64,000 nt of DNA, from the IMG/VR virus record IMGVR_UViG_3300042526_000097, positions 1-64,000 of that record. One strand, given 5' to 3'. Made by a program: the position numbers and the translations under genes. Origin of the DNA: a virus. This document shows positions 1 to 10,112 of the stretch, one piece after another (within the stretch, counting starts at the first letter, position 1; each line of letters begins with the position of its first letter). Under the pieces are notes generated by a model. The model worked only from the letters and a program-made list of their open reading frames with translations, was not told where the DNA came from and searched no databases.

Positions 1-71
1 AGTCAGGACAGGATTTGAACCTATATTCTCCCTCCCTTTAGAGCTGTGTTGCACAATTACACCACCTGACC
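1..71 (-). tRNA. tRNA-like element with degenerate anticodon arm (3' discriminator lies outside the window)
   Basis: Minus strand reads GGTCAGG-TG-GTGT-AATTGTGCA-ACAC-A-GCTCTAAAGGGAGGGAGAAT-ATAGG-TTCAAAT-CCTGT-CCTGACT. Acceptor stem, D stem and T arm all pair, but no canonical 5-bp anticodon stem can form. Confidence 0.7.
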
Positions 72-80
72 TATTATCAT

Positions 81-998
81 CTAATCATTCCATTGAATGT
101 AAATATAGTCATTGTTGTTGTGTTCATCACGGTGAACAGGATAAGAACTTGGATTTTCTTTACAGAATTTTATCACCCACTCAAATGCTGACAAAGACCA
201 TTGTTTGTTAGCAGTAGGTAAGTAAACAAGTATATGATCACCTTCAATCTGTACATTACAACTCCAATAATTAGGATTACCTGCTTTTTCTACAGCTAAT
301 TCAATAGCTGATTTAGTAACAGGAAAGCAATTAGGATGACTTAATTTAATGACGTCTTTCCACGCATCACAAGCTATATTGTGTAGTCTAATAATAGATT
401 CTACTGTTGTAGTGCCATCAACTTTAAAGTTGTCATTAATGAATTCTCTTTGAGATGCTGTAGCTGCTTCATAATACTGATTTAACAGCTCACGTGAGAT
501 TCGAATAGTTTTGGTAGTGTCCATACTTGGAGTTGTCGTTTTTGAGGTTATTGTTTTAAATTCTTCTAATGTAATAGTCCTATACCCTGAGTGGTTGTCT
601 AAGAAGGTTTTTATATCCCCACACCAATAATTGCTGTTATCAGTAGGATGTTCTGACAATAGTGTAAAGCTTACAATAGGTTCAGCAAAGACTGAGTTTG
701 GATTAGTCTTTTTCCACCAAGGTACTAAGATGTCTTCATTTTCTCTTGTTATCTCAATAACCCACTTGTCTGACTGAGACTTCCAAGGGGTATATACTAA
801 GTTCAAGAATGTTTCATAAGAGATGATAGGTCTAACCTGGTAGAATCCTTCATTGTCATTAATCCATGTTTTGTCATTAGTAATAAATCCATTACCTACC
901 CAACCAAAATTTCTCCATTCTAAAAGTTCAAGGGTGTCTGTATCTTTATTTTTACAAGCAACACACCATTGTTTTGGCAATAATTCTTTTTTACTCAT
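81..998 (-). CDS. Hypothetical protein with two copies of a small domain (KxWxI/V ... I(S/T)xExF)
   Basis: Long ORF; ATG at 998 (MSKKELLPKQWCV) follows an A-rich leader. Internal similarity between LPKQWCV...ISYETFL and DKWVIEIT...ITLEEFK. Confidence 0.75.
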   Translation of the reverse strand: MSKKELLPKQWCVACKNKDTDTLELLEWRNFGWVGNGFITNDKTWINDNEGFYQVRPIISYETFLNLVYTPWKSQSDKWVIEITRENEDILVPWWKKTNPNSVFAEPIVSFTLLSEHPTDNSNYWCGDIKTFLDNHSGYRTITLEEFKTITSKTTTPSMDTTKTIRISRELLNQYYEAATASQREFINDNFKVDGTTTVESIIRLHNIACDAWKDVIKLSHPNCFPVTKSAIELAVEKAGNPNYWSCNVQIEGDHILVYLPTANKQWSLSAFEWVIKFCKENPSSYPVHRDEHNNNDYIYIQWND

Positions 999-1061
999 TG
1001 TTTTATTATGTTTTAAAAGTTTAAGAAGAGAAGGCAGTTTCACACCACCTTCTCATAATGA

Positions 1062-1277
1062 TTATTTAATTCTACTGTTATGTTCTTCCATATCACACAT
1101 ACGTGCAAAAGGAATCCAAATGTAACACAAAAAAAGTGCATACATCTGACCTCCACTACAAAGAAGTTCTCTGTAGTTTGTGTTGCCTATAAAAGCAACT
1201 ACTCCTGTAAGGATTAAGTAGCTAAGAAAAGCAATTGAAAGATACTCTATAAGGTATCTTGTGTTTGAATACTTCAT
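1062..1277 (-). CDS. Small membrane protein (2 hydrophobic segments)
   Basis: 71-aa ORF with hydrophobic stretches; start overlaps the upstream stop (ATGA). Confidence 0.7.
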   Translation of the reverse strand: MKYSNTRYLIEYLSIAFLSYLILTGVVAFIGNTNYRELLCSGGQMYALFLCYIWIPFARMCDMEEHNSRIK

Positions 1278-1429
1278 ACTTTTTGTTTTAGAAGGTAAAT
1301 AAATAGGGTTATGATTAATAAGGTCAAGAGCTCAAAGGCTAACATAGAGTTTATGTTTGTAGTCAGCATTGAGTACATTAAGCCTGCCATAGACAGGACT
1401 AGTGCAAGGAATAAAAGGTTTTGTTTCAC
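1274..1429 (-). CDS. Small membrane protein, 51 aa (not in the ORF track)
   Basis: GTG at 1429 gives MKQNLLFLALVLSMAGLMYSMLTTNINSMLAFELLTLLIITLFIYLLKQKV*. Its TGA overlaps the next ATG, and it has an A-rich leader. Confidence 0.65.
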   Translation of the reverse strand: MKQNLLFLALVLSMAGLMYSMLTTNINSMLAFELLTLLIITLFIYLLKQKV

Positions 1430-1464
1430 GATGGTTTTGTTTTTAATGTGATAAATAGGGTTAA

Positions 1465-1734
1465 TTAGGCTTGCATCTCGTAGAAATTAACATTAGAGAA
1501 GTTCTCAATAAGGTAGGATATAACTCCAATAGGTAAACCACTTGCATAGTTTTTACCATCTGGAGATATAGTACCATGTATGAGTCTGAACTTATCTATT
1601 CTTAAAAAGTACTTCATCTTATCTGATGATTCATAGTAGTATTGGATACTCTCTTCAGGTACTACATCTACTTTTGTGATGTTGATGTTCATTTGATAGG
1701 CACAAGCATTGACAAGTAATTCTTTTGGCGACAT
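1465..1734 (-). CDS. Hypothetical protein directly downstream of the twister ribozyme
   Basis: 89-aa ORF; ATG preceded by the A-rich leader (AAAACAAAACT) typical of Bacteroidota. Confidence 0.7.
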   Translation of the reverse strand: MSPKELLVNACAYQMNINITKVDVVPEESIQYYYESSDKMKYFLRIDKFRLIHGTISPDGKNYASGLPIGVISYLIENFSNVNFYEMQA

Positions 1735-1761
1735 AGTTTTGTTTTGAATGTTTTAGAATGA

Positions 1762-2077
1762 TTGTTTAGTTATCCCTCTGCACTCAGTTGTAATCACTTT
1801 ATAACAACATCAGGCGGAATACCGCAATCAATGTTGGTCATCAGACTTACACTTTTTGTTACAACTGCTCACCCTTGGGAGCTGATTAACTTTAGTTACA
1901 GGCAATATTACCTTCCCCTACAGAGCACCCACTCTATTGTGAGATTTATCTATAGCTTCGTTTGTTAATCAGGTAGTTTCACATCTTAAATGTACTTGTA
2001 TTTCTACAAAGGGATAATAGTCCTTCAACCATTTAAGATGCTTATGCTACGTGAGTTGTGGTGCATTAATAAAACAA
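1762..2077 (-). ncRNA. Twister ribozyme (type P1) with large structured insertions in L4 and P5
   Basis: Minus strand reads TTA-T-T^AA-TGCA-CC-ACAA-CTCAC-[170 nt]-TCCC-AA-GG-GTGAG-CAGTTGTAA-[65 nt]-TTACAACTG-AG-TGCA-GA-GGGA-TAA. P1, P2, P4, P5 and both pseudoknots (TCCC/GGGA, CC/GG) pair in the order of the twister consensus. Confidence 0.85.
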
Positions 2078-2094
2078 GGATGTAGAGTCCTTGT
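2068..2094 (-). terminator. Terminator-like hairpin overlapping the 5' arm of twister P1
   Basis: ACAAGGA-CTCTACA-TCCTTGT followed by TTTATT on the minus strand. Confidence 0.4.
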
Positions 2095-2119
2095 GTGAGT
2101 CCTTTAAGTTAATAAAGGT

Positions 2120-2197
2120 TTAGTCGTTTACTTCTAAGAGCCACTGCTTGAGTGTACCTAAGAAGACCAGAGATCCCTGGTTGTCGTATACTGCCAT
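2120..2197 (-). CDS. Possible 25-aa peptide (MAVYDNQGSLVFLGTLKQWLLEVND)
   Basis: Short ATG-TAA ORF co-oriented with neighbours, upstream of the ribozyme; no other support. Confidence 0.3.
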   Translation of the reverse strand: MAVYDNQGSLVFLGTLKQWLLEVND

Positions 2198-2662
2198 GAG
2201 GTTAAAACATTATAGTTTATTAGTTATTTAAGGTTTGTTAAAGTAAGTGGAAGGGAATGATAGGGAGCTTGTAGGTGTATGTAAGGGATAGAATAGGTGG
2301 TTAAATGGTGTTGAAGGTGTAGGAAGTTGGAAGGATTTATAGTTGATTAAGGTGTTGGAAGTAGTCAAGAGGATAGGGATAAAGCAGTATAGAACTATAA
2401 GTCAGAGAGATGAAAGGACAAGAAGAGTTCTAAAAGACTGTTTTGATGGAGGGAAGTTCTAGGGTGTCTCAACCTGACATACAGACTAAAAAGATTGAAG
2501 AGTCTTTTATCTTTTATTGCTCTACAACCTAATGTCTATAGGACTTTCAAGTTGTCAGTAGTCTACAAGTCAGGGAAGGAAATAAAAGAGTTCTTTGTCT
2601 TTTATTATGCCACAAGTAGTCTTGACGTGACGGGAAGAAAAGAAAAGAAAAGCACGTTGGAG

Positions 2663-2780
2663 AACTTGCAGTTAGGAGGAAGCCTTGCACAAACTTGCAG
2701 TTCGGTCACGAAGTGACAAACTCCTGAGACTGTGTAGACGAAGTCGGAACAGTTGAAGGGTATTATGAGACGAAGTCTCA
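2663..2780. repeat. Array of triloop mini-hairpins (3x AC-GAA-GT core; 2x AACT-TGC-AGTT)
   Basis: GTCAC-GAA-GTGAC 2705-2717, GAC-GAA-GTC 2737-2745, TGAGAC-GAA-GTCTCA 2766-2780; AACTTGCAGTT at 2663-2673 and 2692-2702. Confidence 0.8.
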
Positions 2781-2790
2781 ACCTTTTAGG

Positions 2791-2826
2791 ACAACAAGAG
2801 AAGGAAGCCCATAACAGGCTCCCCTC
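2791..2826 (-). terminator. Probable intrinsic terminator after the 2881-3612 gene
   Basis: Minus strand GAGGGGAGCCTG-TTA-TGGGCTTCCTTC followed by TCTTGTTGT. Confidence 0.5.
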
Positions 2827-2880
2827 GTCTCATTGAACTCACACAAAACCTCATACTATCAGGTGTTGAACACCTTAGGT

Positions 2881-3612
2881 TTATGCGTCTGCAAGTGCAG
2901 AAATCTGTGCGTCTGACCAACCTGCTTGAGTCAAGGCCTCAACACTGTAAACTGTACCGTCACTCATCTTCTTCATAGAAGGTGGTGTAGGTCCTGCCAT
3001 TACAGGTTGTGGAACTCCTTGTGGTGCAGGTGCAGAAGGTGCAGAGATAGGTGTTGCAAGTGCAGTTCCAAAACTACGTTCTGTACTCTTAGCAACTTGT
3101 ACATTTGAACTTACTCTGTTCAATGTCCACGCAGATTTAACCTCTCCTGTCTTCGTGTCTGTCCACGTGTCCTTTTTCAACATACCCAATGCCTGTCCAT
3201 AATTCTTCAAGGCATTTAAGTCTGCATTGTCCTCCCAAATAGAGGCACGAACTGTGTACTTGTCTGCAATCTTATAGAATGCATTTCTACAATCCTCTGC
3301 TGTTGCAAATGGTTGAGTCAAGAATGCATTAATTTCAGTTGCGAAGGCATTGAAGTTCACAACAGTTGTAGAGGATACTACATACTTACCCTTTACACCG
3401 TTTGCAGTGTTTGCAGGTAATGCCTGTTGTTCTTTACCCCAAATCAATGAAGCCTCAACAGGTGTTCCCTCTACAGGGTCAATTTCCTTGAACTTCAAAC
3501 GCATAACTGCACTCTTTGCCTGCTCTACTGTCTGTGAAGAACGAAGTGAAGGCTGTTGTGGTGTTGCTGTGGATGCTGTGGGTGTCGGTGTTTGCTCAAT
3601 TAATGTAAGCAT
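2881..3612 (-). CDS. Hypothetical early protein, possibly ssDNA-binding-like
   Basis: 243 aa with a compact core, a Pro/Ala-rich linker and a short C-terminal module (YSVEALTQAGWSDAQI) resembling the tails of some phage SSB-like proteins. The function is inferred. Confidence 0.75.
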   Translation of the reverse strand: MLTLIEQTPTPTASTATPQQPSLRSSQTVEQAKSAVMRLKFKEIDPVEGTPVEASLIWGKEQQALPANTANGVKGKYVVSSTTVVNFNAFATEINAFLTQPFATAEDCRNAFYKIADKYTVRASIWEDNADLNALKNYGQALGMLKKDTWTDTKTGEVKSAWTLNRVSSNVQVAKSTERSFGTALATPISAPSAPAPQGVPQPVMAGPTPPSMKKMSDGTVYSVEALTQAGWSDAQISALADA

Positions 3613-3656
3613 ATCTGTGGTGGACTGTTATACTCCCGTCCGTGGAGTTAAGTTAG

Positions 3657-3699
3657 TACTATGGCAAGGAATCGAACCTTGCTAATAACCATTCATAGT
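3657..3699 (-). ncRNA. tRNA minihelix-like element (acceptor stem plus T arm only)
   Basis: Minus strand ACTATG-AATGGTTATTA-GCAAGG-TTCGATT-CCTTGC-CATAGT-A: canonical T loop on a 6-bp stem, coaxial with a 6-bp acceptor-like stem; D and anticodon arms absent. Confidence 0.6.
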
Positions 3700-3872
3700 T
3701 AAGACATTACAACATACGGTGGTGGTGGTGTAGGTAAGTTAAACACACTTACCAATCCTACTGCAGGATGACAGTATTCGTGCACCAATATGAATCCTTG
3801 TAACAAGAACAAGGTCTTTACTTCAGGGTAAGACAGCCCTCTTCCTAAGCAATAATCTTCTGTAAGTTGCAT
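3699..3872 (-). CDS. Small hypothetical protein (first gene of the leftward unit)
   Basis: 57-aa ORF from ATG 3872, co-oriented with neighbours. Confidence 0.5.
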   Translation of the reverse strand: MQLTEDYCLGRGLSYPEVKTLFLLQGFILVHEYCHPAVGLVSVFNLPTPPPPYVVMS

Positions 3873-3911
3873 AGTGTGTGTGTTCAGCACTCCTGTCCAC
3901 GAGTTTAGTTA

Positions 3912-4200
3912 TGTAGCCCTAAATTCCTTTCAACAGGAAACGTGTACGGCTACTTTCCACGCAAGAATTAGTAGGGGGGACTCATCCTAAGGTGGTCTCT
4001 CCTCTTTGACATACACATAGTTTTTTAAAATAAGAAGGTGGGGGGTGTCTTTATAGTTCTAACACCTAGGGGGTACTTTATGACCTTAAGGTACTAGGGG
4101 GCCTATGAATTTAAAAGAATTTTAAAAATTTCTTTACTACTCTCCCAAGGGTTTCAGAGGAATCCTATAGTTGCTTGTTGTTTGGTATGAAAAAAAACCA
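3912..4200. other. Divergence region between leftward and rightward gene blocks, with phased G-runs
   Basis: Gene orientation flips here; G5-6 runs at 3974, 4040, 4069 and 4097 in an AT-rich background. Confidence 0.6.
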
Positions 4201-5598: not shown

Positions 5599-7680
5599 AT
5601 GTGGCATAATCTAGTAAATACTGAATACTTCAAGGAGGCAGCTAATGGCTTTAAGAAAAATGGAGGCAAGTACACTCTAGCCCCTAGAGGTTCTAAGGAC
5701 TACTTTGACTTTTGGCAGATGCATGAAGATAGATGTAAGAAAGGCTACAAGGTAGGTGGTACTTGGATTACAGGTAGACACTACTTCCATCTTAACTTCC
5801 AACCTATGTGGAAGACAGATGATGCTGTAGCATTAAGAGCATTTGAAGAAGCTAGAGATAAAGGTGGTAGGATATCTAAAAGAACTGCTGATAAGATATT
5901 AGACTTTCCAAGATTCCACGAGATGCAATATGAATGGTGGAGATTTAAACACATAGCTTGGAATGGTGGAACATTTATGGGAATAGACTCACCAGGGGGT
6001 AAGCACATGTGTTGTGCCAAGACTCGTGGAGCAGGATTCTCTTACATGGAAGCTGCTGATGGTGTGTACAACTACAACTTCATTCCCGGTTCTAAGTCAT
6101 ACTATTTTGCATCCACAGAACAATACCTAACAGTAGATGGTATTTTAGTTAAAGTACAAGAGGGACTAGATTGGATTAACAACCATTGTCCTTATTGGAA
6201 ACAGAACAGACAGAAGAAGAATACAATGATGCATCAGAAAGCATCTTACTTAGATCAGTATGGAGAAGAGCAGGGTTCTATGGCTGAGATTATGGGAGTC
6301 ATTGTAGACAACGCTAATAAGACTAGGGGTAAGAGGGGAAAGAAAGCAGTCTTTGAGGAAGCAGGTTCTTTTAAGAATCTTAAAGCTGCCTTAGAAATCA
6401 ACATGGGTTCTATGAGAGATGGTGACTTCTATGTAGGTCAGATATCAGTCTTTGGAACAGGTGGGGAAGAGGGCCCTTCAATTGAGGGACTTGAAGATGT
6501 CTTTATGAATCCTCATCAGTGGGACATGCTATCCTTTCCTAACATCTGGGAAGCTGGAGCAGACTCTGAGACAGGATACTTTGTTCCTTCCTTTAGGGCC
6601 AACTTTGTGTATACTGATAAAGATGGAAACACAGACATAGAGAAGTCACTACTATCTGATAATGAAGAGAGAGTTAAGAAGTCCAAGTCTAGAGATCCTA
6701 AAGATATTGATAGAAGAAAGGCTGAGTACCCACAAAGACCTTCTGAACTATTCCAACGATTACAACTCAATGACTTTAATGTCCACGAGATAGACCAACA
6801 GATTAAGAGGATTGAATCATCTACTACTATACAAGCCCTACTACGTCATGGTAACCTAGTATCTTCAGAATCTGATACAGCTTTAAATGGTGTAGAGTTT
6901 TTACCTGACAGCAAGGCTAAGCCTATAAACCAATACCCACATAAGAGAGGGGACGACCTTACAGGTTGTGTGACTATATGTGAAAGACCTTACAAGGACC
7001 AGAACGGTAAAGTACCATCAGGTATGTACAAGTTAGTCTTTGACTCCTTCTACAAAGATGATGCTGATGACCTTACTTCTTTATTTGACATTAGAGTCTT
7101 TAAACTAGACAACCCACACGATAGTTCCTACACAGGATTACCAATAGCTTGGTATACAGGTAGACCTAAACTAGCTAGGTGCCACGAGATACTATTCAAC
7201 CTATGTATGTACTATAATGCTACTGCTCAAGGGGAGATATCAGGTGGAGGACAATCAGTCTTAGACTATGCTAAGCAAAAGAGACTATTACATTGGTTAG
7301 ACTTTGAACCTGAGATGTTACACAACAAGGAGATAGCTTCAAAACAAAAGAACAGGTCTTACCTTATGAACATGACTACTGATAGAAAGAAGATGGGTAT
7401 GACTTATATGGCTGAGTGGCACATGGAGATTAGGGGAGTAAGAGCAGACCACACGCCTATCTACAATGTCCATCAGATATATGATGTAGGTCTACTAAGA
7501 GAAATGAGAAGAGGTGGTATACAGAACTCTGATAGAATGTCTTCTACACTTATAGCTATGTTTATGATTAAAGAGAATGTAGCTTATAGAGTAAAAACAG
7601 CACAAACAAAAAGTGACTTTTACTCAAGAACTTTGTTTACAGGAACATCCATTGCAGAAGACAATACATCTCTCTATTAA
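5599..7680 (+). CDS. terL: Terminase large subunit
   Basis: KTRGAGFSY (crAss-type Walker A), VFEEAG (Walker B), GTGG coupling motif, C-terminal RNase H-like acidic residues (VFDSF, SDRMS). Confidence 0.93.
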   Translation: MWHNLVNTEYFKEAANGFKKNGGKYTLAPRGSKDYFDFWQMHEDRCKKGYKVGGTWITGRHYFHLNFQPMWKTDDAVALRAFEEARDKGGRISKRTADKILDFPRFHEMQYEWWRFKHIAWNGGTFMGIDSPGGKHMCCAKTRGAGFSYMEAADGVYNYNFIPGSKSYYFASTEQYLTVDGILVKVQEGLDWINNHCPYWKQNRQKKNTMMHQKASYLDQYGEEQGSMAEIMGVIVDNANKTRGKRGKKAVFEEAGSFKNLKAALEINMGSMRDGDFYVGQISVFGTGGEEGPSIEGLEDVFMNPHQWDMLSFPNIWEAGADSETGYFVPSFRANFVYTDKDGNTDIEKSLLSDNEERVKKSKSRDPKDIDRRKAEYPQRPSELFQRLQLNDFNVHEIDQQIKRIESSTTIQALLRHGNLVSSESDTALNGVEFLPDSKAKPINQYPHKRGDDLTGCVTICERPYKDQNGKVPSGMYKLVFDSFYKDDADDLTSLFDIRVFKLDNPHDSSYTGLPIAWYTGRPKLARCHEILFNLCMYYNATAQGEISGGGQSVLDYAKQKRLLHWLDFEPEMLHNKEIASKQKNRSYLMNMTTDRKKMGMTYMAEWHMEIRGVRADHTPIYNVHQIYDVGLLREMRRGGIQNSDRMSSTLIAMFMIKENVAYRVKTAQTKSDFYSRTLFTGTSIAEDNTSLY

Positions 7681-7712: not shown

Positions 7713-10112
7713 ATGGGTGAGATAACCAGTTCTGGCAAACCAATGCAAACCCTTTTATGGGCTGATAAAATCAAAGACAACGGTAAGTGGTTTGAGAATT
7801 GCTGCAACTACTATGTAGGTGTAAGTAGATTCTACGGCCGTACAAGGAGTAATGATGCTAGAGACCTTAAAGTCTTGTATGATGTATACAATGCAAAGTT
7901 CCCTACTGATTGGTTTCTACAACATACAGATCCACTATCAGCTAAAGACCCTAAGCACAAACAGTTCCCGGCTAAGATAAGACCTGTTTGTATCCTTAGA
8001 ACCAACTTGGATCTTCTAATGGCTGAATACCCTAGGAGACCATTTATCTACCAAGTCAACAACATATCAGATGATGGGTACTCTAGATACCAAGAAGAGT
8101 TAAAGTCTCAGGTAACATCTAACATCACAGAGCACTTTAGGAACATGCTGATGAAACAGATGATGCAAGAAGGTTTACTTACTGAAGATGGACAACCTGC
8201 ATCAGAAGAAGCAGTTCAACAAGTTCAAGATAGACTAGACTCTCTAGAGATACCTGATGGTATTAAGAGTAAGTTCTCATCATCATACAAAGATGCAGTA
8301 GCTATCAAGGGACAAAGATGGTTAACTAGAATCATAGCAGAATCCTACCTACGTCAGAAGTTAAACAAGTGTTTTAAACATTGGGTAATAGTAGGGGAGA
8401 CTTACTCTTTTAAAACTATAGAGAACAATCAGTTTGTCTACAGAGCTATATCTCCATTGATGATTGACTATGATAAATCTCCTGAAGAGGACTTCATAGA
8501 AGATGGTGAGTGGGTAGTGTTTGAAGACTTTGTAACAGTCTCAGATGCAGTAGATAGATACTACACTGAACTAGTAGAAGATAACATTAAGAAGATGGAG
8601 CAGACTACCATCTATAACTCCCCTACACACCTCTATGACCATTTATCATCTACCCTTGAAACATCAAGAGGTAATAAGGTAAGAATACTACACACAGTTT
8701 GGAAGGGTAAGAAAAAATGGGGTATGCTGACTAGAATGAACCCTGAGACTCAAGAGGTAGAGACAATAGAAGTAGATGAGGACTACCCAGTAGATACAAC
8801 AACTGAATCAGTAGAATGGCACTGGGCTAATGAGATATATGAATGTACTAAGTTGTCTCACGACATCTACCTTAGGAAAAGAGCATTCCCTTTTCAACGT
8901 AACTCAATGTCTAACTTCTCTAAGACTAAACTACCTTACAATGGTAGGAAGTTCTCAGACACTCACTCACAGAATGTTTCTGTAATGGAGATTGGCCTTC
9001 CTCTTCAAATCATGTACATCATTATTACCTATACCCTTGAACGTACTATAGCAAGAAGTAAAGGTAAGATAGTACTATTAGATCAGAATGTAATACCAAG
9101 AGAAGAAGGATGGGATGAAGAGAAGTTCTTCTACTATGCAGAAGCTATGGGTTATGGTCTTATCAATAGAAACCAAGTAGGTGTAGATAAAGGATACAAT
9201 CAATACCAGGTTTTAGATATGAGTCTGTATGACTCTATTAAACAGCTGATAGATTTACAGATGCACTTTAAGTCTGAGTGGGATGACCTTATAGGAATCA
9301 ACAGACAACGTAAGGGACAAACCTATGCATCAGACTTAGTGGGAGTTAATGAAAGAGCTACCTTCCAATCTACAGTTATTACTGATATGATATTTAACCT
9401 ATTCGAAGAGTGGGTAGAAAGAGAACTACAGGGTATATTAGACTTGACTAAGTTCTTAGCTATAGATGGTGTCTACAAGGTATGGAATAGCACTGACCTT
9501 AATACTGAAATCCTAGAGATTGAACCTACTGAGTATTGCTCTGCAGACCTAGGTATTATGGTACAATCTTCTGCTGAAGCTATGGCTATTAAGAACAAGC
9601 TAGAAGGCAGTGTACAAGCAATGCTTCAAAACAATGTAAAACCTTCTACTATCTTACACATACTCAAGTCACAGAACATAGCTGACCTAGAGTCCAAGTT
9701 AAATCATATTGAAGAGATACAAGCTAAGGCAGAACAGCAATCAGCTCAATCTCAACAAGAAGCCGAAGCTGCTGCTGATGAACGTAAGAAACAGTTTATG
9801 GAATACCAAGAGTTGCTGAAGAGAGGTTCAATGCAAGAAGAGTATGATAGAAAAGAAGATATAGAGAATATTAGAGGAACTTTCAGTACTTTTACATTCC
9901 AAAACGGAGATGCAAACAATAATGGAATTCCTGATGCCACAGAAGTTGCTAAGCTTACTCTAGAAAGAGAGAAGTTTATGGCAACCCTACAAGGCCAAAG
10001 GGAAGCTAGAGTACATGATGCAAGAGAAAAAGAAAAGGACAGAGCACTTAAAGGTCAAGAGATTGCCTCTAAGGAAAAGATTGCAAAATCTAAACCTGCC
10101 CCAAAGAAGTAA
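7713..10112 (+). CDS. Portal protein
   Basis: 799 aa after TerL; crAss-portal-like segments (KLPYNG, IGINRQRKGQ) and a C-terminal coiled coil with DANNNGIPD. Confidence 0.9.
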   Translation: MGEITSSGKPMQTLLWADKIKDNGKWFENCCNYYVGVSRFYGRTRSNDARDLKVLYDVYNAKFPTDWFLQHTDPLSAKDPKHKQFPAKIRPVCILRTNLDLLMAEYPRRPFIYQVNNISDDGYSRYQEELKSQVTSNITEHFRNMLMKQMMQEGLLTEDGQPASEEAVQQVQDRLDSLEIPDGIKSKFSSSYKDAVAIKGQRWLTRIIAESYLRQKLNKCFKHWVIVGETYSFKTIENNQFVYRAISPLMIDYDKSPEEDFIEDGEWVVFEDFVTVSDAVDRYYTELVEDNIKKMEQTTIYNSPTHLYDHLSSTLETSRGNKVRILHTVWKGKKKWGMLTRMNPETQEVETIEVDEDYPVDTTTESVEWHWANEIYECTKLSHDIYLRKRAFPFQRNSMSNFSKTKLPYNGRKFSDTHSQNVSVMEIGLPLQIMYIIITYTLERTIARSKGKIVLLDQNVIPREEGWDEEKFFYYAEAMGYGLINRNQVGVDKGYNQYQVLDMSLYDSIKQLIDLQMHFKSEWDDLIGINRQRKGQTYASDLVGVNERATFQSTVITDMIFNLFEEWVERELQGILDLTKFLAIDGVYKVWNSTDLNTEILEIEPTEYCSADLGIMVQSSAEAMAIKNKLEGSVQAMLQNNVKPSTILHILKSQNIADLESKLNHIEEIQAKAEQQSAQSQQEAEAAADERKKQFMEYQELLKRGSMQEEYDRKEDIENIRGTFSTFTFQNGDANNNGIPDATEVAKLTLEREKFMATLQGQREARVHDAREKEKDRALKGQEIASKEKIAKSKPAPKK

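Follow-up and report, generated by a model that had tools for sequence, protein, structure and literature searches.

Conserved tRNA-like and twister-type RNA folds at gene boundaries of a crAss-like freshwater phage as candidate marks for transcript cleavage

The virus record IMGVR_UViG_3300042526_000097 of IMG/VR (89,418 bp), from an uncultured crAss-like freshwater phage, was analysed with its first 64 kb (positions 1 to 64,000) as the window. The leftward gene block of this phage, which runs from about position 3900 down through position 1 and continues into the far end of the record, carries three real and conserved RNA folds, namely a tRNA minihelix, an enlarged twister-type RNA and an anticodon-less tRNA. 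As the first-pass annotation had proposed, structured RNAs occupy the gaps of this block, all of them on the minus strand and free of open reading frames (ORFs); the folds covary and sit at gene boundaries, and each belongs to a phage-wide RNA family that is not resolved by Rfam. From their placement and conservation it is, on balance, probable that long transcripts are divided at these elements, by RNase P, RNase Z and a ribozyme. The three elements and two companions are listed below (window positions unless stated otherwise).

3657..3699, minus strand: tRNA minihelix; acceptor 3699-3694/3663-3658, linker 3693-3682, T arm 3681-3665, unpaired C3664, discriminator A3657.
1770..2072, minus strand: twister-type RNA; P1 2072-2070/1772-1770, predicted cut U2068^A2067, P2 2065-2062/1782-1779, P4 2055-2051/1872-1868, P5 1867-1859/1793-1785, T1 1879-1877/1776-1774, T2 2061-2060/1874-1873, L4 core 1881-1873, inserted arms i1 2050-2047/1976-1973 and i3 1972-1965/1889-1882.
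1..71, minus strand: tRNA-like element A; acceptor GGUCAGG/CCUGACU, D arm, T arm AUAGG-UUCAAAU-CCUGU and a mini-hairpin in place of the anticodon arm.
Genome 89291-89076 (contig L003, 1712-1926), minus strand, outside the window: conserved RNA of about 215 nt between A and B.
Genome 89075-88863, minus strand: element B, sister of A, 216 nt further along.

The minihelix predicted at 3657-3699 was confirmed on the minus strand, with a fold backed by covariation in ten family members. It is about 44 nt in size, has neither D stem nor anticodon arm, and reads in 5′-3′ order ACUAUG, AAUGGUUAUUAG, CAAGG-UUCGAUU-CCUUG, C, CAUAGU and A, so that a 6-bp acceptor stem (ACUAUG/CAUAGU) and the T arm are connected by a 12-nt D-loop-like linker with the D-loop remnant AAUGGUUA. 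The conserved GG of the linker falls at the position where a D loop would contact the T loop, and the element may be regarded as the top half of a tRNA, elbow included. A genome-wide search for T arms of the GGTTCRAWTCC type with a complementary acceptor strand on their 3′ side returned the minihelix, A and B only, and a search with the minihelix model gave no second copy in this genome.

An exact search of viral contigs that included the acceptor strand gave no match to the minihelix; acceptor-free patterns recovered it in one metagenome contig, together with eight further distinct viral elements. In the resulting family (n = 10) the sequences of the acceptor and T stems vary and their pairing is kept, with 85.8% paired cells versus about 45% when the 3′ partners were slid and 42 double-change cells versus 5-11 in the slid controls; the covariation score was reached by none of 500 shuffles. 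A recurrence of the elements in gene gaps of other phages had been suggested beforehand as a check, and it was found for the nine distinct minihelices, which sit between same-strand ORFs in unrelated phages. For six of the nine, the upstream stop codon lies no more than about 10 nt from the first acceptor base or overlaps it, and the ORF on the 3′ side begins 0-102 nt later, mostly 20-100 nt. Within a series of small ORFs on one strand, contig L184 (3869-4168, minus strand) carries a pair of minihelices separated by 254 nt, each following the stop of a small ORF (121 and 56 aa), and a ribozyme-bearing contig (L176) also has a minihelix.

The tRNA-like element at 1-71 had been described as retaining acceptor, D and T arms without a proper anticodon arm, and this description stands. 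Against the Rfam tRNA model (RF00005; gathering score 29), A scores 39.2 bits in full context and 33.2 bits when cut at the window edge, and the alignment skips the anticodon arm, with 15 nt in place of the 17 expected. The fold at this position, CUCU-AAAG-GGAG, is a 4-bp stem with a 4-nt loop; A does not form the 5-bp anticodon stem with 7-nt loop, and ARAGORN calls no gene. The 5′ end of A lies 9 nt past the stop of the 320-aa ORF, and its discriminator is at genome position 89291, past the window start. Element B shares the acceptor and T arm of A and has a Leu-type D arm (GCGGAAUGGUAGACGC), a 4-bp stem with a 5-nt loop at the anticodon position and a folded variable arm of about 135 nt (z = -2.9); a terminator-like hairpin with a U run comes after it. 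Two other identities were considered for B and rejected, a transfer-messenger RNA (none called by ARAGORN -m, no Rfam hit to this class in L003) and a tRNA-Leu with a group I intron (no Rfam intron hit at E<=10, and an ARAGORN intron solution that is inconsistent across the family). No decoding tRNA was called by ARAGORN in the whole circularised genome.

The 21-nt 3′ end common to A and B (GGTTCRAATCCTGTCCTGACT) occurs at at least 120 viral loci, and up to seven copies of the family per contig were seen among the matches listed, mostly within phage tRNA arrays. Among 185,579 prokaryotic species genomes it was present in 23 contigs only, all from metagenome-assembled genomes spread over the taxonomy; no GenBank phage contained it, and a family member gave only weak matches to Vibrio phages. 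In the 146 unique members analysed, the first ~16 nt and last ~26 nt are 80-100% conserved, the total length ranges from 54 to 212 nt, and the interiors (17-162 nt) are mutually unrelated, falling into 128 clusters. Conservation covers exactly the acceptor, D and T parts and leaves the anticodon region free to vary; ARAGORN rejects 115 of the 146 and, with introns allowed, returns anticodons scattered across the family. The family resembles class II tRNA-Leu (RF00005) in its acceptor, Leu-type D arm, T arm and mostly A discriminator, and A passes the Rfam threshold, but its members differ in having no 7-nt anticodon loop, in the frequent ARAGORN rejections and in their unrelated interiors. RNase P and RNase Z recognise the stack of acceptor and T arm together with the elbow, and not the anticodon. 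The conserved parts of the A/B family thus match the footprint of these two enzymes, which supports a processing role. In a separate observation, another phage contig (L015, reverse strand, ~4000-4112) carries, ahead of a homologue of the 215-nt RNA, a tRNA-like element with the acceptor CCAUUCU/AGAAUGG and a long interior, so that the anticodon-less design is not confined to the AGTCAGG acceptor.

The contrast between identical ends and unrelated interiors also invites another explanation, in which the tRNA-shaped elements, above all A and B, are stable scaffolds for swappable inserts (regulators, aptamers or sponges) or sinks for host factors that handle tRNA (the CCA-adding enzyme, LeuRS, EF-Tu) or for tRNA-sensing defences, with processing as a means only. 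The 128 interior clusters among 146 members, the multiple copies per contig, hairpins that are maintained by compensatory change within interior clusters, the Leu-type D arm with its mostly A discriminator, the folded 135-nt arm of B and a shell conserved in sequence beyond what folding needs would all fit such a role. However, about 190 phage loci contain no homologue of the interior of A or of that of B, the interior of A is a 12-nt mini-hairpin offering little cargo, and no consistent protein family neighbours the loci, the commonest occurring at no more than 15 of the 120 listed. Nor does this account for the minihelix, where an insert would find no room, and elements with no anticodon loop would make poor decoys for anticodon nucleases; we regard this explanation as unlikely. 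The more specific suggestion of the first-pass annotation, that tRNA-like decoys are released, found no support; an anticodon nuclease would need an anticodon loop for recognition, which all three elements lack, so that a decoy role of this kind is unlikely.

The strongest hint of a processing role for A and B comes from the conserved RNA of about 215 nt between them, which begins AAUGAGUAAGAGAUACUCAG and ends in a 3′ hairpin with the loop AAUCUCA. No Rfam family was found for it, and homologues are present at nine phage loci. A tRNA or tRNA-like gene lies 0-15 nt from the homologue, upstream in nine of nine and downstream in eight of nine. Since genuine tRNAs are among these flanks in other phages, A and B occupy tRNA slots, in a phage that has no decoding tRNA of its own. 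In phage T4, the stable RNAs species 1 and 2 (rnaC and rnaD) are small non-coding RNAs of the tRNA cluster that are co-transcribed with tRNAs and released by tRNA processing. The 215-nt RNA may be comparable in kind, and it differs in being flanked here by tRNA mimics and by no true tRNAs.

The third element had been annotated as a twister ribozyme at 1762-2077. Its bounds are refined here to 2072-1770, and the pairing scheme holds on 23 homologues, whereas no Rfam hit was obtained; from its sequence it is best called a twister-type variant with predicted cleavage activity. The region 1770-2013 has three near-invariant blocks in common with other phage loci; the ribozyme core AATCAGCTCCCAAGGRTGAG was found at 37 viral loci, and the 5′ half UAAUGCACC was present exactly or with one mismatch in 23 of 33 distinct members, with diverged forms in several others. 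The layout runs from P1 through the cut site followed by AA, P2, CC, a short junction, the 5′ strand of P4 and the arms i1 and i3, and then through the L4 core C-U-CCC-AA-GG, the 3′ strand of P4, P5, AG, the 3′ strand of P2 and GAGGG to the 3′ strand of P1. On the 23 homologues this scheme gave 96.2% paired cells versus 31-45% in slid controls, and 10 pairs with compensatory change versus 3-5. Pairing reached 98.9% in P2 and 100% in P4 with one covarying pair, the last P4 pair being C-G in 17 sequences, U-A in 4 and U-G in 1, and one pair of arm i1 was A-U in 11 and G-C in 11 with zero mismatch; P5 and arm i3 covary too. The AA 3′ of the predicted cut is invariant, and the base on its 5′ side is U, G, A or C. 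An initial fold of 1770-2013, with CAC/GUG as P2 and a GCUC/GAGC hairpin, was contradicted by covariation and withdrawn; the covarying partners are instead CUCA(C/U) with (G/A)UGAG and G(U/C)(G/A)G with C(C/U)(A/G)C.

The L4 core U-CCC-AA and the L1 3′ strand GAGGG presumably correspond to those of the rice twister. More generally, the order P1-L1-P2-L2-P4-L4-P5-P2′-L1′-P1′ of type P1 twisters with P5 (Roth et al. 2014, via PMC5408937; RF03160) is kept, as are the 4-bp P2, and the invariant A after the cut with a variable base before it, and complementarity for a putative T1 (CCC:GGG) and a putative 2-bp T2 is present; in twister the A 3′ of the scissile bond is likewise conserved and the base 5′ of it less so (PMC5408937). 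The element departs from twister in several ways. Two extra arms of about 170 nt, both conserved helices, are inserted in L4 between the 5′ strand of P4 and the L4 core, so that P4 closes no simple hairpin and L4 is not a contiguous loop; T2 is CC:GG here and GC:GC in twister (review PMC5408937); P1 is weak and no Rfam model matches, and activity here is a prediction. Three further arrangements were observed. In L159, L161, L151 and L179, twister-type RNAs occur in tandem, the 3′ end of one copy (…UGCAGAGGGA) directly adjoining the 5′ half of the following copy or lying a short way before it. Arm i3 of the L159 and L176 members contains a T-arm-like hairpin, GGGTTCAATTCCC, a tRNA-like motif nested in the ribozyme insertion. 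The L174 member (218-511) has an extra 26-nt hairpin between P5 and the 3′ strand of P2, which indicates that another insertion site is tolerated.

Comparison of close strains revealed that the ribozyme core is kept and the flanks are nearly identical while the inserted arms differ. Identity is about 98% over 2049-2919 versus about 88% over the ORF at 225-623, and strain homology breaks at about 3030. The relative L162 shares 82% identity over 998-1452 and then diverges up to the ribozyme core. Such patterns, along with the tandem copies in several contigs and GIY-YIG homing endonuclease genes at 12 of the 120 listed tRNA-like loci, could mean that the elements chiefly delimit mobile gene cassettes, the RNA cores being landmarks for recombination or homing and cleavage being secondary. 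Against this, covariation reflects selection on RNA pairing and not on DNA sequence, the strain break at about 3030 lies inside a gene and not at any element, and Pfam and PHROGs annotation revealed no recombinase or endonuclease gene in the leftward block; a cassette-edge role is unlikely, slightly more so than the scaffold role. That the elements are now functionless, as decayed tRNA genes and a ribozyme that has lost its activity, is highly improbable. The absence of decoding ability and the weak P1 agree with decay, as does the closest relative found by a TerL search (L004), in which the left block is different and holds neither the minihelix nor any other of the elements, but neutral decay cannot account for the compensatory changes and near-invariant cores that dozens of unrelated phage contigs share.

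Under the processing explanation that we favour, the leftward block would be transcribed as one or few long RNAs that are then divided by three kinds of signal. The minihelix, A and B would retain what RNase P and RNase Z read, an acceptor stacked on a T arm and the D/T-loop elbow. Host RNase P would cut at the 5′ ends, before A3699 and before G71, and RNase Z after the discriminators, following A3657 and genome position 89291. These cuts would separate the 63-aa ORF from the single-stranded DNA-binding protein (SSB)-like gene, terminate the 320-aa ORF message and free the 215-nt RNA. The twister-type RNA would cleave itself at U2068^A2067, independently of protein, ahead of a group of four ORFs; the upstream RNA would keep a 3′ hairpin, and the four-ORF message would receive a 5′-OH end and the folded ribozyme. 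Consistent with this, a hairpin ends 4-8 nt ahead of the predicted cut in 19 of 25 twister-type members. The long-RNA transcription, each of the cleavages and any effects on RNA stability are what we infer from the folds and their positions. The model predicts cleavage at five exact positions and defines the end chemistry at each: 3699/3700, 3656/3657, 2067/2068, 71/72 and genome 89291.

Known systems offer partial parallels, the closest being the mitochondrial tRNA punctuation model. Plant-mitochondrial t-elements direct RNase P and RNase Z cuts at mRNA ends (Forner et al. 2007, PMC1920247), and the phage elements resemble them as non-decoding tRNA-like folds with the GGTTCRANYCC T-arm motif, located in mRNA precursors at gene borders. 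They differ in that they belong to a DNA phage, the minihelix is far smaller and cleavage is predicted from sequence. Theta (hepatitis delta virus-like) ribozymes process phage tRNAs (Kienbeck et al. 2024, PMC10879173) and are likewise small self-cleaving ribozymes acting as RNA-encoded processing devices in phage transcripts, but the ribozyme here is of another class and precedes protein genes, not a tRNA. The literature describes t-elements, theta ribozymes and twister; no description of the present phage families was found in it.

The earlier proposal of RNA-encoded punctuation is supported in part, by comparative placement and conservation (minihelices beside stop codons, A and B bracketing the 215-nt RNA, a hairpin before the ribozyme cut), and several observations weigh against it. 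The RNA data come from one metatranscriptome run containing 5% of sampled words, as assembled contigs that cannot show transcript ends, strand or level, in which uncovered parts carry no meaning and the depth stems mostly from homologues of other phages. An RNase P cut before A3699 would strip the last base of the upstream stop codon, and the same holds for L184 and L194. The two terminator-like hairpins, at 2826-2800 and 2094-2074, may divide the block into several short transcripts instead of a single long one. Very different phages share identical acceptor, D and T sequences in the A/B family, which neither RNase P nor RNase Z requires, and the compensatory hairpin changes within interior sub-families hint at a further role. 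As for the ribozyme, P1 is paired in only 63.8% of the 23-sequence alignment, the T1 (CCC:GGG) and T2 (CC:GG) complementarity is present in 23 of 23 sequences and, being invariant, offers no covariation, and Rfam searches of the window, the gap and seven homologous loci, at gathering thresholds and at E<=10, returned neither twister, twister-sister nor any other family for the ribozyme region.

A broader and more speculative proposal, which we consider possible but rather improbable, is that cut marks encoded in RNA form an exchangeable set common to uncultured phages, made up of tRNA mimics of the top-half kind, shells shaped like Leu-tRNA and an enlarged twister. The set would replace promoters and terminators, parcel transcripts and release dedicated small RNAs, the hypervariable inserts of the shells and twister arms being functional cargo under diversifying selection, for example against host defences. 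If the predicted cuts occur, a DNA phage would organise its expression in the manner of mitochondria, borrowing the tRNA-trimming enzymes of its host and adding a ribozyme. This would explain many gene-free gaps in the genomes of uncultured phages, and the twister-type RNA would represent an expanded natural twister architecture that standard catalogues have missed. Two families of tRNA mimics absent from Rfam would likewise be defined, the A/B family being absent also from GenBank phages, a collection in which no minihelix search was made.

The leftward block is ordered as ORFs of 63 and 243 aa, an ORF-free gap of about 1.1-1.2 kb and ORFs of 89, 51, 71 and 320 aa. Its genes and other features, with the first rightward genes, are as follows.

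3699..3890, minus strand: ORF of 63 aa, whose UAA stop overlaps the minihelix acceptor by one base, the last of the stop and the first of the acceptor.
2881..3612, minus strand: ORF of 243 aa, SSB-like (weak match to Gp2.5-like single-stranded DNA-binding protein); starts 44 nt after the minihelix.
2800..2826, minus strand: terminator-like hairpin of 12 pairs, after the SSB-like gene.
2095..2799, minus strand: ORF-free stretch of about 700 nt, of extreme strand asymmetry, with a GC skew of +0.85 at 2201-2400.
2074..2094, minus strand: 7-bp hairpin, then UUUUAUU, ending just ahead of the predicted cut.
1062..1734, minus strand: three small ORFs (89, 51 and 71 aa) that follow the ribozyme; none matches a family.
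81..1043, minus strand: 320-aa ORF that matches no family and is the final protein gene ahead of tRNA-like A.
5599-7680, rightward: terminase large subunit.
7713-10112, rightward: portal.

Pfam and PHROGs searches returned next to nothing for the ORFs of the leftward block, a search with the SSB-like protein found no relatives, and neither the block nor its ORF-free gap had a match in GenBank phages. The ORF-free stretch, taken as 2095-2880, likewise had no homologue in the approximately 190 phage loci, and reading the gap as a recoded gene, with TAG as Gln or TGA as Trp, opened no convincing frame. A Bacteroidota-type promoter motif was not found in the gaps of the block, a result in favour of the processing explanation.

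The DNA runs that contain the sequence are lake and freshwater metagenomes. Because the two ends of the record overlap by 127 bp, position 1 is where the assembly broke a circular or permuted genome. This 127-bp ‘direct terminal repeat’ (window 1-127, genome 89292-89418) equals a common maximal assembler k-mer, and probably reflects circular assembly and not true genome ends; its boundary cuts tRNA-like A at the last acceptor base.

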